Shown here: positions 2,848-50,914 of the stretch, piece by piece
Numbering within the stretch: position 1 is the first letter of the stretch
Layout: each line of letters starts with the position of its first letter
Source of the DNA: Escherichia phage CJ20
Sequence record: MT533174.1
DNA length: 64,000 nt
Direction: 5' to 3' (one strand)
Translations under genes and position numbers: made by a program
The notes under the pieces: model-generated
What the model was told of the DNA's origin: nothing
The model's input: only the letters and a program-made list of their open reading frames with translations
The model's database searches: none

Positions 2848-2933
2848 GCATAGAAAATGAATACGCAGTGATTTGTGCTGCTGTAGCTGGCCTGTTGATT
2901 GCCTGGGTTATTGGCAAAGTGATTGATTCTTAA
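2844..2933 (+). CDS. small hydrophobic peptide (29 aa)
   Basis: ATGA overlap with gene 52 stop; single TM-like segment; below ORF-track cutoff. Confidence 0.25.
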   Translation: MSIENEYAVICAAVAGLLIAWVIGKVIDS

Positions 2934-2935
2934 AA

Positions 2936-2965
2936 ACTAGGACCCTTCGGGGTCCTTTTTATTTT
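2936..2965 (+). terminator. rho-independent terminator (GGACCC-UUCG-GGGUCC + U-run)
   Basis: GC stem with UUCG tetraloop followed by T-run downstream of gene 52. Confidence 0.7.
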
Positions 2966-2973
2966 AAAAAGTA

Positions 2974-3003
2974 GTGTACAATCCCCTTGACCTGATGCAT
3001 AAT
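2974..3003 (+). promoter_or_regulatory. T4-type early promoter (-35 GTGTACA, -10 CATAAT) with conserved leader
   Basis: GTGTACA-N17-CATAAT followed by conserved GATTCCATACTGAGTTAC leader shared with other copies. Confidence 0.6.
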
Positions 3004-3052
3004 GATTCCATACTGAGTTACAAACTGAATCACAAAAACTTTGGAGAATAAA

Positions 3053-3270: not shown

Positions 3271-3879
3271 ATGAACAAGTTAAATTATATCGTTAAATGC
3301 TCCCAGAACGCTCTACACGAGACTGATGTCAATGCTCTGGTGTTTGTATACAAAAACAACTTTGTTCGTCCAGAGGTTGTTTTAGACCAGCAGAACACAT
3401 CAATTGATAGCGTACAGACATTGTTGAATAACAACTATGTTGAAGCTTCTGGTGATGGTTTGATGGTTACAGAAAAAGGTGTTGACCTTATTCTGGATGC
3501 GGCTGAACTTTGGGCAAATGAAAATAATCCTGACCTTCTGGAAGTAAAGAAGACAAGAACAAAACGCGGTGTGACTGATGAAATGGAAGCGACTGCAGAA
3601 TATATCAAAGAGCAATTGTTGTCCATTGGTATTGACTTTAAGAGCATTTCAGAAGACCGCAGTAATTTGATTGTGAAGTTCAAGCGTGTCAAGACATTAA
3701 AACAGATTGATGTGCGACGTGATGGTCAGATTCGCGTGCATGCGTATAATACTGAACAAAAGATAGTAAAACAGTTTACAGACGTGGGATTTAGCGTTAA
3801 AGTAGGTGGATTGAATACCTACATTGACAATCATATGTCAACTGAAAACATTCAACATGTTATTAACATCTTAAAGTGA
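3271..3879 (+). CDS. motA: middle transcription activator MotA-like (202 aa)
   Basis: Shares SGDGL(I/M)xT and KQFTDVGxS motifs with recalled T4 MotA; position next to gene 52. Confidence 0.6.
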   Translation: MNKLNYIVKCSQNALHETDVNALVFVYKNNFVRPEVVLDQQNTSIDSVQTLLNNNYVEASGDGLMVTEKGVDLILDAAELWANENNPDLLEVKKTRTKRGVTDEMEATAEYIKEQLLSIGIDFKSISEDRSNLIVKFKRVKTLKQIDVRRDGQIRVHAYNTEQKIVKQFTDVGFSVKVGGLNTYIDNHMSTENIQHVINILK

Positions 3880-3886
3880 GGAAATT

Positions 3887-4231
3887 ATGAATAAGCTGAA
3901 TATTGTTAATGAATTGCGTGCTTGTGTAGAACCTACTCAAGAGGGTTGGGATGTTTGGTATCATGGCGCTTATCTTGGAACTATTATCAAGGTCAAAGCT
4001 GGGTTATATTTAATCATTCGTGAAAATTCTGAATTCCCTAATGGAGTAGCTCCTGGTGGTATTCGCAAGAACTTCATGGCGGCAATTGGTGCCTTTGTTC
4101 CAGCAGCATATGAAGTATATAAAGCTGACTACAAAGAATACCAGGAATCACAACCAGTTATTCGCTCAATTGGTGTTAATAAAGCACAACAGAAAAGTCT
4201 GTGGCAACGTGTTAAAGGTTGGTTCAAATGA
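3887..4231 (+). CDS. hypothetical protein (114 aa)
   Basis: Tightly packed early ORF with RBS; no recognisable domain. Confidence 0.5.
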
Positions 4232-4716
4232 ATCCATTAAAAGGTAAAGAATTATCCTTTAAAGACCGTATGGCCTTATTGGATAAAGCTCTTTCTCGTG
4301 AAACTCCTGAAAGTCTCGCTGCTAAACTACAGGCATATGGTGATTACACTGAATATACAGAAGAGGATGTTTTAGAAGAGGTTCCTGAAATCTGTTGGCA
4401 GATTGCTCATTGGAACAACAATGAAAAATATCAGCGACGGATTGTGTGTGCTGCCAACCGCTTTAAGTTAAAAGATGGTGGGACTCTGGTTATTCCTGGT
4501 GCCAGACATTATTCCAAGGATATGGCAGAAGTGCTTGACCAGGTAAGTGATAAACTCGTGTCAGACCATGTTTGTGGTGACGACCAAGGATTTATTGACC
4601 AATACAGCAATTACTGGACCCGCGAAGAAGCAATGATTATTGCGACTTATGCAAATCAGGTGCGCATTGAACGTGGTGGCAGTGAGAAAGAACTTTATTC
4701 AGAGGACCTTTACTAA
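4228..4716 (+). CDS. hypothetical protein (162 aa)
   Basis: ATGA overlap with upstream ORF; in-frame with track ORF 4219-4716. Confidence 0.5.
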
Positions 4717-4994
4717 TGAACCTTAAACAACTCCAAATTGATGCGATTGAAAACCATATTAATCATATCAAACGTCTGAATACCATGATGGAAGAAAACT
4801 GGGGAACTTATGTTAACCAACCAGCTTGGGATGCCCTAGACCATGAATATATAAAGGATATTAGTGATAACACATATAGAGTTAGAGAAGGTCTGAAGCC
4901 CTTCCTGCGTGATATGTATATTGCGACTAATAAAGAAATTATTAGCTCTCTTGAATACCAATTAAGGAAATTGCATGAACAACCTGGTAGCTAA
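4716..4994 (+). CDS. hypothetical protein (92 aa); size and position compatible with Arn
   Basis: TAATG overlap with upstream ORF; 92 aa lying between motA and asiA; assignment by position only. Confidence 0.4.
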   Translation: MNLKQLQIDAIENHINHIKRLNTMMEENWGTYVNQPAWDALDHEYIKDISDNTYRVREGLKPFLRDMYIATNKEIISSLEYQLRKLHEQPGS

Positions 4995-35712: not shown

Positions 35713-35883
35713 AATTAGCGTTATAAATAATAATATGGATTGGTTGATGTCATACAGAGCTTTGCTGGTGTATGGGGTTAGCTAATCCTAAACGGTGGAC
35801 TACAACTGAGAGACTTGCCGCAAGGAAGTGAAATTCAGAAGAACGTGTCCACCAAATATTCACCTCATATTGAGGCTTCTAAA

Positions 35884-36138
35884 ATGTCTTTAAACAAACA
35901 ATTACAACACGCTCTCGAACTGCAACGCACTGCATGGAATAACGGTCACGAAAACTACGGCGCATCTATTGATGTTGAAGCCGAAGCACTGGAAATTCTG
36001 CAGTATTTCAAACATCTTAACCCGGTTCAAACCGACCTTCGCGCAGTGCTCGAAGCAAAAGATGAACTGAAATTTGCTAAGCCGCTGGCATCTGCTGCCC
36101 GTAAAGCTGTTCGCCATTTTGTCGTAACCCTGAAGTAA
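35884..36138 (+). CDS. rIII: rIII-like lysis-inhibition accessory protein (84 aa)
   Basis: C-terminal FAKPLxSAARKAVRHFVVTLK and EALEILQYFKHLNP resemble recalled T4 rIII; position after gene 31. Confidence 0.5.
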   Translation: MSLNKQLQHALELQRTAWNNGHENYGASIDVEAEALEILQYFKHLNPVQTDLRAVLEAKDELKFAKPLASAARKAVRHFVVTLK

Positions 36139-36200
36139 GCTGTAGGTGATTCGCTACCTTAGTGCGGCTAGAAAATCGAGGAGCCGTCGAACTGCCTGAT

Positions 36201-36220
36201 TAATGATTCGCGAATCATTA
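36201..36220. repeat. perfect 20 bp palindrome TAATGATTCG/CGAATCATTA
   Basis: Exact inverted repeat inside an ORF-free GC-rich intergenic region. Confidence 0.9.
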
Positions 36221-36434
36221 TAGTTTTAAGACCCCAGCAGTTTTACGGTGTACCTCTTGAATGTATTTTGTACTATCACGCGTCAGAAAAAGGTTATCTG
36301 TCTAAGCCGTGGTTGGTATGATGACGAGGTTTATGGTTATCCTGTCGTTAAATATCCGAAACCTAATGTTCCCTTCGAGGGCTTGCGCAGGCAACGTCAA
36401 TAAGTCCTGCATTCTATTTTAAAGAGAATTTAAT

Positions 36435-36596
36435 ATGGCTAAGAAAGAAGTTAAAGTTGTTGATGGCTCCTCCAAACGCGCTGGTTACAAGCGTGCGTCC
36501 AACAAGCGAATCAATCAGGTAACTGATAAACTTCAGGCTCGTGCTCGTGCGGTATTGCGTGCCGATGCAGCTTGCTTTGGTAAGCCGAAAGCATAA
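36435..36596 (+). CDS. small basic protein (53 aa), Lys/Arg-rich
   Basis: ATG-initiated ORF followed directly by a strong terminator; may be non-coding. Confidence 0.3.
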   Translation: MAKKEVKVVDGSSKRAGYKRASNKRINQVTDKLQARARAVLRADAACFGKPKA

Positions 36597-36601
36597 GTTC
36601 A

Positions 36602-36629
36602 GGGACTCTTCGGAGTCCCTTTTTTATTT
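36602..36629 (+). terminator. rho-independent terminator (GGGACUC-UUCG-GAGUCCC + U-run)
   Basis: GC hairpin with UUCG loop and T-run. Confidence 0.75.
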
Positions 36630-50290: not shown

Positions 50291-50914
50291 ATGACTTATG
50301 AATTTATTGTCCAAATTAAAAATAAAACTATAAATTGTAGGGCTTTTACCTTGCGCGAATACAAAGATTTGCTTCAGGCAAAATTAGAAAAGCGTATGGA
50401 ACCTGCAATAATTGAACTGCTTAATAAATGCACTGATGCTAAAGGGTTAAACAAACAGGAAGCTGAACTGCTTCTTATTAATCTCTGGGCAAATAGTCTC
50501 GGAGCTGTTAATGTCGAGCATACATGGGTATGCGAGTGTGGAAAGGAACAAGATATTCCTGTGACTATAAGTCGCGCAAGCATCGTGGATGAGTCTGAAG
50601 TTATTCGTGATTTCGGGGCGTTTAAAATTAAATTCCGTTATCCTGGACTGTTTGAAGATGGCGATAAAGGAAAAATGATTGCTTGTTGTATCGAATATAT
50701 TATCACGGAAGGCGGCGAGCGCATCGTTGTTGATGACTTAAATGAAGCCGAAATCGAGGACCTGTACAATGCAATTACCCTCGATGATATAAATGCACTA
50801 ACGGAAGAACTTCTCAAGCCACAGGTCCAAATGGCTATTCCTATCTCTTGCGAGTGTGGAGCGCATTCTGTCCATGTAATTAAGGGGCTTAAAGAATTCT
50901 TTAAGTTTATGTAA
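50291..50914 (+). CDS. 26: baseplate hub subunit gp26 (207 aa)
   Basis: ATG after AAAGGAGCAAATT RBS gives a length near T4 gp26 (208 aa); position. Confidence 0.65.
   Translation: MTYEFIVQIKNKTINCRAFTLREYKDLLQAKLEKRMEPAIIELLNKCTDAKGLNKQEAELLLINLWANSLGAVNVEHTWVCECGKEQDIPVTISRASIVDESEVIRDFGAFKIKFRYPGLFEDGDKGKMIACCIEYIITEGGERIVVDDLNEAEIEDLYNAITLDDINALTEELLKPQVQMAIPISCECGAHSVHVIKGLKEFFKFM

Follow-up and report, generated by a model that had tools for sequence, protein, structure and literature searches.

Organisation of the rIII-30.9 spacer

We analysed a stretch of 64,000 nucleotides from Escherichia phage CJ20 (sequence record MT533174.1; hereafter the window) and, within it, the 296-nt gap between the genes rIII and 30.9 (36139-36434). 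The comparisons described here suggest, with a probability that we put at roughly 0.6, that this spacer is a non-coding structured RNA region carrying an orphan antitoxin mimic similar to the pseudo-ToxI of phage PhiTE. ToxI is the pseudoknot RNA that keeps the ToxN endoribonuclease of ToxIN abortive-infection systems inactive. The locus contains the following features, given in 5' to 3' order.

35884-36138, + strand: rIII coding sequence, the upstream neighbour, with its TAA stop at 36136-36138 (open reading frame list)
36144-36177, + strand: single ToxI-like unit, AGGUGAUUCGCUACCUUAGUGCGGCUAGAAAAUC ('pseudo-ToxI', a candidate orphan type III antitoxin mimic; BLAST and covariation)
36178-36256, + strand: block A, an extended irregular stem-loop (RNAalifold consensus, pair count and minimum free energy (MFE) fold)
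36201-36220, + strand: palindrome, forming the 8-bp hairpin at the apex of block A, UAAUGAUU-CGCG-AAUCAUUA (exact palindrome in the window)
36268-36321, + strand: module M5 (alignments; structure by eye)
36322-36363, + strand: H-type pseudoknot, PK (covariation in 19 T4-like variants)
36371-36381, + strand: small hairpin CCCU-UCG-AGGG (by eye)
36387-36410, + strand: hairpin GCAGG...CCUGC with loop CAACGUCAAUAAGU (by eye)
36422-36596, + strand: 30.9 with its ribosome-binding region; the coding sequence, for a small basic protein, starts with the ATG at 36435 (open reading frame list)
36601-36620: strong terminator 3' of 30.9, the nearest one to the gap (terminator scan)

The 951 bases around the gap are up to 98% identical to T4-like coliphages (the DK-13, P896 and VR7/VR25 group), and by its sequence the phage is T4-like, of the genus Gaprivervirus. 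Genes on the + strand run in the order cd, 31.2, 31.1, gp31, rIII, the gap, 30.9, 30.8 and 30.7. The rIII product matches PHROG 1457, the lysis inhibition accessory protein (E 2.4e-42), and that of 30.9 matches PHROG 1427 and no Pfam family; both genes are annotated under these names in VR7, JS98, T4 and RB69. The original prediction, made from the sequence of the window, had described the gap as free of open reading frames (ORFs), visibly GC-rich and without a promoter or terminator cassette. No ORF of 60 amino acids or more is indeed present on either strand, the longest being of 51 (36248-36403) and 37 (36309-36422) amino acids, and simple scans agree in finding neither a sigma-70-like promoter nor an intrinsic terminator inside the gap. 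The GC-richness did not hold: at 0.422 against a window mean of 0.409, the gap lies at the 62nd percentile of 296-nt windows, and its G+C content is lower than that of rIII (0.455) or 30.9 (0.481). A tRNA/tmRNA search of the 64-kb window found none.

Used as the sole query, the gap matched 775 phage records, T4 and RB69 included, most of which are unannotated at the spacer or carry arbitrary short 'hypothetical proteins' there. The length of the gap varies among relatives, being 244 nt in T4, 263 nt in RB69, 352 nt in JS98 and 204 nt in S16. At the sequence level two blocks of the spacer are better conserved than the neighbouring genes: block A is 90% identical to T4 and 96% to RB69, and the block from the pseudoknot PK to the last hairpin 88% and 93%, against 83% for rIII and 65-67% for 30.9 in the same comparisons. 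Single-base insertions and deletions are common, each candidate small ORF shifts its frame or stop between relatives, and neither of the two gap ORFs matches a PHROG family. A conserved core combined with drifting frames and stops and no PHROG match excludes a decaying gene or a conserved micro-protein as the main explanation. The gene remnant that had been offered as one option, with a decaying ORF looked for in homologous phages, thus disagrees with what the relatives show: the spacer is kept, its core blocks more strictly than the flanking genes, and no ORF keeps its frame or stop.

The spacers that follow rIII were compared among 35 viral contigs (L numbers below) and with those of VR7, P8, pEC-M719, JS98, T4, RB69, S16, SA21RB and PM2. 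Modules are present, absent or reordered among these spacers, and the positions of rIII and 30.9 are constant. The first, ToxI-like, module is missing from RB69 and JS98, M5 is missing from T4, and an unrelated module of about 140 nt takes the place of M5 in JS98, SA21RB and pEC-M719. The palindromic hairpin is absent from S16, and in some genera PK is the first module of the spacer.

A ToxI-like unit follows the rIII stop codon

Prompted by literature on the pseudoknots found in toxin-antitoxin systems of type III, we searched the plasmids of a 7.3-Gb database by BLAST with positions 36139-36185. The matches are tandem toxI arrays in five genera, at 85.4% identity over about 40 nt (E 5e-3), with arrays in Pectobacterium atrosepticum (13 places), E. 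coli, E. albertii, Lelliottia (10) and Hafnia (7). Two of them were examined, and both are bona fide toxI antitoxin arrays: repeats of 36-37 nt, AGGTGATTCGCTACCTT(T)AAGTGCGGGACGAAAATCC, are followed by a terminator and then by a gene annotated 'type III toxin-antitoxin system ToxN/AbiQ family toxin'. The window counterpart, AGGTGATTCGCTACCTT-AGTGCGGCTAGAAAATCG, lies in the sense direction at 36144-36178, in the same orientation as rIII and 30.9; the VR7 version has AAGTG. When the whole gap was compared with 5,426 E. coli genomes, only two plasmids matched, through the ToxI-like part, and one of these is an examined toxIN plasmid.

The predicted pseudoknot of the unit is of H-type and has two stems of 3 bp.

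36145-36147 with 36156-36158, + strand: ToxI-like stem 1, GGU/ACC
36152-36154 with 36164-36166, + strand: ToxI-like stem 2, CGC/GCG

Covariation was assessed in 29 units, taken from real ToxI, from the window, VR7 and T4 and from other viral contigs. Pairing in the two stems of the pseudoknot (GGU/ACC, NGC/GCN') extends to 94.3% of cells, and in stem 2 to 100%, with C-G, U-A, A-U and G-C all occurring at one position and G-C or A-U at the next. None of 500 shuffles reached the observed value, and slid controls were at most 63% paired. Like a real ToxI repeat, the unit has stem 1, a 4-nt loop, stem 2, a 1-nt loop and a long third loop, followed in the same strand sense by an A-rich tail with AAAAU (36172-36176); it measures 34 nt against 36-37 nt for the real repeats and by our own count is identical to the pPA21A and E. 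coli repeats at about 31 of 35 positions. AAAAU includes AA^AU, the motif at which ToxN cleaves. The pattern of loop lengths (3-4, 1-2, long) agrees with that of published ToxI-family pseudoknots (PMC3401426). Together, sequence similarity and covariation make homology of 36144-36177 to ToxI well supported.

Covariance models of Rfam 15, a scan that had been proposed as a check, gave nothing credible on the gap at E values up to 10, the preQ1-I riboswitch with its similar pseudoknot shape included; at the gathering threshold the whole window had no match, and related loci were likewise without a credible one. A genuine toxI array also went undetected, so the silence of Rfam is uninformative on type III antitoxins, and Rfam appears to be without any model able to detect ToxI.

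A query of three real toxI repeats retrieved 96 phage records, mostly T4-like coliphages with one unit. The PhiTE locus was retrieved by this same query and is the only one of the 96 that is annotated as 'pseudo-ToxI'. The T4 unit, GGAGATTCACTGCCTTAGTGTGAGCTAAATCG, is a divergent member, akin to units that stand beside canonical ones in the 342-kb phage contig L228; against plasmids it gave one chance-level match (E = 9) and no matching array. In a pattern scan of viral contigs, single ToxI-like units were scattered over many unrelated phages. Such scattered single or heterogeneous units in unrelated phage contigs argue for selection rather than accident.

Some unrelated viral contigs carry several units. 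Four non-identical ones stand in a row in L236 (1915-2050), followed by a terminator-like hairpin; four differing ones are spread over about 400 nt in L228 (~3500-3940, - strand); L227 (1864-1935) has two differing units, one of them caught by a looser pattern only, and L244 (4638-4710) two near-identical ones. These loci look like broad-spectrum antitoxin-mimic arrays. In two T4-like contigs, L194 and L195 (1501-1940), only the C-terminal half of rIII is present and is joined at TTTATTGGAGATT to an apparent tRNA gene cluster. GGAGATT is there the start both of a T4-type ToxI-like unit and of the first tRNA-like sequence, which suggests recombination at this microhomology. By eye, the PhiTE pseudo-ToxI (L230, ~2920-3050) looks as if inserted in a tRNA gene, its flanks ..TATAGCTCAGCA and ..GGTTCGAACCC..CCACCA resembling, respectively, the 5' and 3' parts of such a gene.

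The palindrome caps an extended stem-loop

The palindrome TAATGATTCGCGAATCATTA at 36201-36220, to which the original prediction drew attention, is exact and is the sole perfect 20-bp palindrome in the window, where by our estimate about 0.06 would be expected by chance. A single further 18-bp perfect palindrome exists in the window, at 50888-50905. In our comparisons the 20-bp palindrome forms the tip of a helix of about 80 nt, block A, with an asymmetric loop, UAGUUUUAAGACCC, 3' of the apical hairpin and the following outer helices.

36178-36181 with 36253-36256, + strand: P1, GAGG/CCUC
36183-36187 with 36245-36249, + strand: P2, GCCGU/ACGGU
36189-36196 with 36236-36243, + strand: P3, 8 bp, AAYYRYC type

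The helix was obtained with RNAalifold from 11 colinear spacers and by a pair count over 14 distinct variants, in which 98.6% of cells are paired and seven pairs are changed on both sides. Again no shuffle out of 500 reached the observed value, and slid controls stayed at or below 63% paired. In P2, four sequences have an A-U pair and VR7 has a C-G swap; P3 has several double changes in VR7 and L182. Perfection of the palindrome is limited to this phage and stems from a T-to-C change in the loop; its centre in relatives is TTTGCG, TTTACG, TTTGTG or TTTGAG, giving an 8-bp RNA hairpin with a 4-nt loop (UGCG, UACG, UGUG or UGAG). The apical stem of L182, AUCGAUU/AAUCGGU, has U.G and C-G in place of A-U and U-A. 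Two G.U pairs of block A are invariant and would be C.A mismatches on the opposite strand, which indicates that the folded molecule is + strand RNA.

A pairing of CGGCT with AGCCG had also been put forward. Both motifs exist (36165-36169 and 36182-36186), and their pairing with each other lacks comparative support: the CGG of the former is part of the ToxI-like pseudoknot, in its stem 2, and the GCCG of the latter is part of P2 in block A. Folding was a further suggested check, and it bore out one part of the structure. The MFE fold of the single sequence gives the same block A helix, and the whole spacer has no excess stability, with MFE z-scores against shuffled sequence of -0.27 (+ strand) and -1.09 (- strand). 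In the absence of a thermodynamic signal, the structural case rests on covariation. Alignment with related phages, as had been recommended, did reveal compensatory base changes, and their presence in three sub-structures bears out the structured small RNA that was among the options named. The ToxI-like unit at the 5' end, the place of the palindrome at the tip of block A and the downstream pseudoknot go beyond what had been described.

A downstream pseudoknot shared with unrelated phages

The third covarying sub-structure, PK, is built from two stems.

36322-36329 with 36341-36347, + strand: PK stem 1, UGACG(A)GG/CCUGUCG
36335-36338 with 36360-36363, + strand: PK stem 2, GGUU/AACC, longer in other genera

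Its third loop is UUAAAUAUCCGA, and a 16-mer, GGTTTATGGTTATCCT, is invariant at 36328-36343. Over the 19 T4-like variants 79.5% of cells are paired, compared with 37-53% in slid controls; the covariation score is 0.339 against a control maximum of 0.142, and none of 500 shuffles reached the observed value. Stem 2 occurs as GUGG/CCAC, GUUGGUU/AACCAAC, CAAGGUU/AAUCUUG, GUGAG/CUCAC and GGUAG/CUACU, among others.

The 16-mer recurs, identical, in at least seven unrelated families of viral contigs (L012, L033, L026, L054, L035/L074/L097, L081, L072, L085), one of which consists of 200-400-kb contigs with dozens of loci. In these unrelated copies a variable loop or hairpin comes after it and AAAACC(A/T)T after that; the compact form can be written (A/G)GG-UUU-AUGGUU-AU-CCU-loop-AAA-AACCAU. 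By its sequence, PK is part of a motif common to unrelated phages. Three of the families have the 16-mer in sequence rich in tRNA genes: in L081 and L072 a tRNA gene is its immediate neighbour, and L035 is the third. The latter contig also carries a full-length ROOL RNA (4179-4758; RF03087, 311.7 bits) in a tRNA-rich setting, the PK motif being some 7 kb further on. No Rfam family covers the 16-mer motif, and PK had no BLAST match in plasmids. A scan for tandem copies of the pattern in 185,579 species genomes returned only Gly-Tyr-Pro coding repeats and unrelated repeats, and one in metagenomes two matches that we judged to be due to chance. The ORFs downstream of PK in unrelated phages have no toxin-like Pfam match, and a text search of the literature for its 12-15-mers found unrelated papers only.

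In seven non-T4 families the distances from ATGGTT to AACCAT or AACCTT are 9, 12, 9, 18, 18, 27 and 33 nt, all multiples of three, and the motif is readable there as a mini-ORF, MVIL...(K/E/Q)N(H/L), the frame of which is broken in the T4-like copies. In some T4-like genera, PK is followed immediately by a ToxI-like unit (L234, 2560-2680, - strand; L185, 1800-1875; ..GAAACCUUCA/GGUGAUUCGC..), a junction that resembles the junction between repeats of real toxI arrays (..GAAAAUCCA/GGUGAUUCGC..).

Other modules of the region

M5 has a conserved core, GCGUCAGAAAAAGGUUAUCUGUCUAAG (36280-36306), within a stem whose sequence varies between genera; by eye, its inner helix changes from CAGA/UCUG to CAGC/GCUG in relatives, and its GGUUAUCUGUC is similar to the core of the downstream pseudoknot. 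The M5 core was found in T4-like contigs only, other pattern matches in viral contigs looking coding or due to chance. The small hairpin at 36371-36381 is kept across T4-like genera, with variants that include CCUCUUAGAGGG, CCCUAUGGGG and GCCUUCGAGGC. The stem at 36387-36410 becomes GAACUGG/CCAGUUC in S16 and GGGAGC/GCUCCC with a long insert in other genera. Judged by eye, both small hairpins vary by compensatory substitution across genera.

Many T4-like phages from several genera (L003 ~1309-1460, L004, L008, L176, L178, L180, L185-L192) have, in place of M5, the module of about 140 nt (CGGCAAGUGCAUGCUACCCCGAGG...GCUAACGGUGUGCAACAGAUAAGAG). This module shows apparent compensatory changes, for instance in its AUAUAU...UAUAUAU and CCCGAGG stems, and has no match in Rfam; the SA21RB annotation places a terminator inside it. 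The spacer between gp31 and rIII (35713-35883) is also structured, with GUGGAC-UACAACUGAGAGACUUGCCGCAAGGAAGUGAAAUUCAGAAGAACGU-GUCCAC at about 35795-35853, a module that is homologous, with compensatory stem changes, to one upstream of 30.9 in L176, L185 and others. In the same spacer a hairpin at about 35866-35877 pairs CCUC with the ribosome-binding GAGG of rIII, and a late-promoter-like TATAAATA lies at 35723-35730.

Alternative explanations

The spacer might instead be a cis-acting untranslated region whose hairpins and pseudoknot shield the rIII message at its 3' end and the 30.9 message at its 5' end from RNases (RNase E, RegB) or set the translation of 30.9, its likeness to ToxI being a by-product of past recombination with toxIN plasmids. 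We consider this less likely than the main reading. T4 is known for control at the mRNA level, the spacer lies between two genes of the same orientation and has neither promoter nor terminator itself, the adjacent gp31-rIII spacer ends in the hairpin in which the rIII GAGG is paired, and GGAG, a RegB-type motif, is invariant at 36180-36183. However, the PK core occurs in unrelated phages beside different genes and among tRNA genes, the long module that precedes 30.9 in other genera sits upstream of rIII in the window, and modules come, go and change order while rIII and 30.9 remain. The last structured element ends about 25 nt before the start of 30.9, leaving its ribosome-binding site uncovered, and both stems of the ToxI-like unit are kept by compensatory change across genera, unlike a relic. 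That the spacer codes for very small proteins, one or several, such as the product of the 37-amino-acid ORF at 36309-36422 (MVGMMTRFMVILSLNI...) or, overlapping PK, of the mini-ORF MVIL...KNH, seems improbable to us. Some automatic annotations do call ORFs here, a -1 and a +1 indel 27 nt apart in T4 restore a 34-amino-acid ORF with a similar C-terminus, and the spacing of ATGGTT and AACCAT/AACCTT is a multiple of three in all seven unrelated families. Stop and frame nevertheless differ in RB69 (19 amino acids), JS98 (13), SA21RB (10), S16 and PM2; PM2 and several genera lose the ATG or stop early (AUG UAG in L176, MMWSL* in L188) with the pairing kept, the shared core shows no synonymous variation, indels of one base abound in the spacer, and PHROGs gave no match.

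Two proposals concern the palindrome itself. It could act as DNA, as a site for a dimeric protein, as had been suggested, or for recombination, nicking, replication or packaging, and a perfect 20-bp inverted repeat that is unique in the window is what draws one to this idea. We think it very unlikely: the repeat is perfect in this phage only, the central T.G of the relatives is a wobble pair in RNA alone, the changes in L182 are compensatory and include a U.G pair, the arms are spaced by 0-4 nt like those of a hairpin loop, and the whole lies within a longer helix with invariant G.U pairs. The hairpin with the following UAGUUUU could also be read as an intrinsic terminator of rIII, since it stands 80 nt past the rIII stop codon and ends in four U, and the spacer of some relatives has a program-annotated terminator, but this lies within the 140-nt insert. 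The stem contains a single G-C pair (or two, counting the C.G next to the loop) and the run of U is broken, with four T after 'ATAG', where a G+C-rich hairpin and at least five T would be looked for; the terminator scan was negative, S16 is without the hairpin but keeps the outer helix, and a strong terminator lies 3' of 30.9. We give this reading hardly any credence.

Discussion

The unit differs from ToxI of toxIN plasmids in being single instead of part of a tandem array, in having neither a toxN gene nor an array terminator downstream, in lacking a 5' cleavage motif, and in its place within a putative phage message between two phage genes. Its closest parallel is the pseudo-ToxI of PhiTE, which is likewise phage-borne, non-coding and intergenic, has no toxin gene and is present in a sub-functional copy number (1.5 there, 1 here). 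Unlike in PhiTE, the element belongs here to T4-like Straboviridae, comes directly after the stop codon of rIII and adjoins further conserved RNA modules. The PhiTE pseudo-ToxI is expressed in infection and suppresses ToxN once expanded, escape from ToxIN proceeding by expansion to 4.5-5.5 repeats or by capture of toxI (PMC3475682). By analogy, the unit probably helps the phage to disarm the nuclease of the host suicide defence, and it is from PhiTE that we infer an anti-ToxN activity.

The spacer RNA would most likely be made as part of the rIII-30.9 message; transcription in one unit is supported by the sense orientation of the ToxI-like unit relative to both genes, with no promoter or terminator between them. 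Its RNA modules are self-contained, and T4-like phages retain, drop and rearrange them. On shut-off of host transcription by the phage, the unstable host ToxI would decay and ToxN would be freed, and phage transcripts bearing the ToxI-like pseudoknot with its A-rich AAAAU tail could then be bound by ToxN. If ToxN also cuts the tail, the enzyme may, on our assumption, stay on the product; cut or uncut, part of the ToxN would be titrated, on the same principle as with the PhiTE pseudo-ToxI. PK may serve as a further protein-binding or decoy RNA.

Several observations weigh against this interpretation. The unit is single in the window and in T4-like relatives, and what lies downstream of it is RNA modules and 30.9, with no ToxN gene. 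No AAAU occurs in the 8 nt that separate the unit from the rIII stop codon, and AAAAU is found in the 3' tail only; with one unit and no 5' AAAU, a mature 36-nt ToxI could not be released by two ToxN cuts. About half of the sampled T4-like spacers are without a ToxI-like unit, and the whole spacer folds no better than shuffled sequence (z = -0.27). Neither plasmids nor E. coli genomes gave matches to the stem-loop, M5 or PK, no tandem arrays of them turned up in genomes or metagenomes, and no link to defence was found for them. Wild-type T4 is restricted by E. coli toxIN, and RB69 forms plaques on toxIN cells, which has been credited to TifA (PMC10853763). T4 has the divergent unit yet is restricted and the RB69 spacer lacks a unit yet the phage plaques, so presence of the unit does not track resistance. 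Wild-type PhiTE, with 1.5 repeats, did not escape from ToxIN, and one cloned PhiTE repeat failed to neutralise over-expressed ToxN (PMC3475682).

TifA (gp61.4), of the same phage group, presumably has the same target, ToxN (PMC10853763); it is a protein encoded elsewhere in the genome, whereas the spacer element is RNA. In the accounts of T4-like phages examined, TifA is the sole anti-ToxIN factor named, and no ToxI-like RNA is mentioned (PMC10853763, PMC5449768, PMC5086642). The ToxI mimic of T4-like phages is unannotated, and we found no earlier report of it.

PK resembles the published descriptions of TenpI and CptI in shape, and its topology is also like that of ToxI: it is of H-type with a short first stem, a first loop of 3-5 nt, a second of 2 nt and a long third loop whose end, next to stem 1, is a run of A (PMC3401426, PMC12283969). 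Some phage copies of PK have a hairpin inserted in the third loop, as has been described for the ToxI of one system. The resemblance is one of shape to these descriptions; we found neither an antitoxin array nor any bacterial sequence similar to PK, and no tandem copies of it, and we do not claim membership. A wider reading would make the spacer an 'RNA anti-defence island' of single-copy orphan decoys (the ToxI-like unit, PK, M5, the stem-loop and the 140-nt module), each directed against a different RNA-binding abortive-infection toxin or nuclease. We regard this as rather unlikely; if it were true, the 16-nt core of PK would mark a class of decoy RNA that is new and widespread among phages.

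No lytic phages have been studied better than T4 and its relatives, and the action of toxIN on T4 currently serves as a model of abortive infection. The rIII-30.9 spacer, one of the few long 'empty' spacers of the T-even phages, is densely filled with structured RNAs that are more strongly constrained than the flanking genes. If our interpretation of the ToxI-like unit is true, these phages would have an RNA route against ToxIN besides TifA, with a unit in T4 and a closer form of it in VR7-type phages, and this route could provide raw material for escape by expansion, as in PhiTE.

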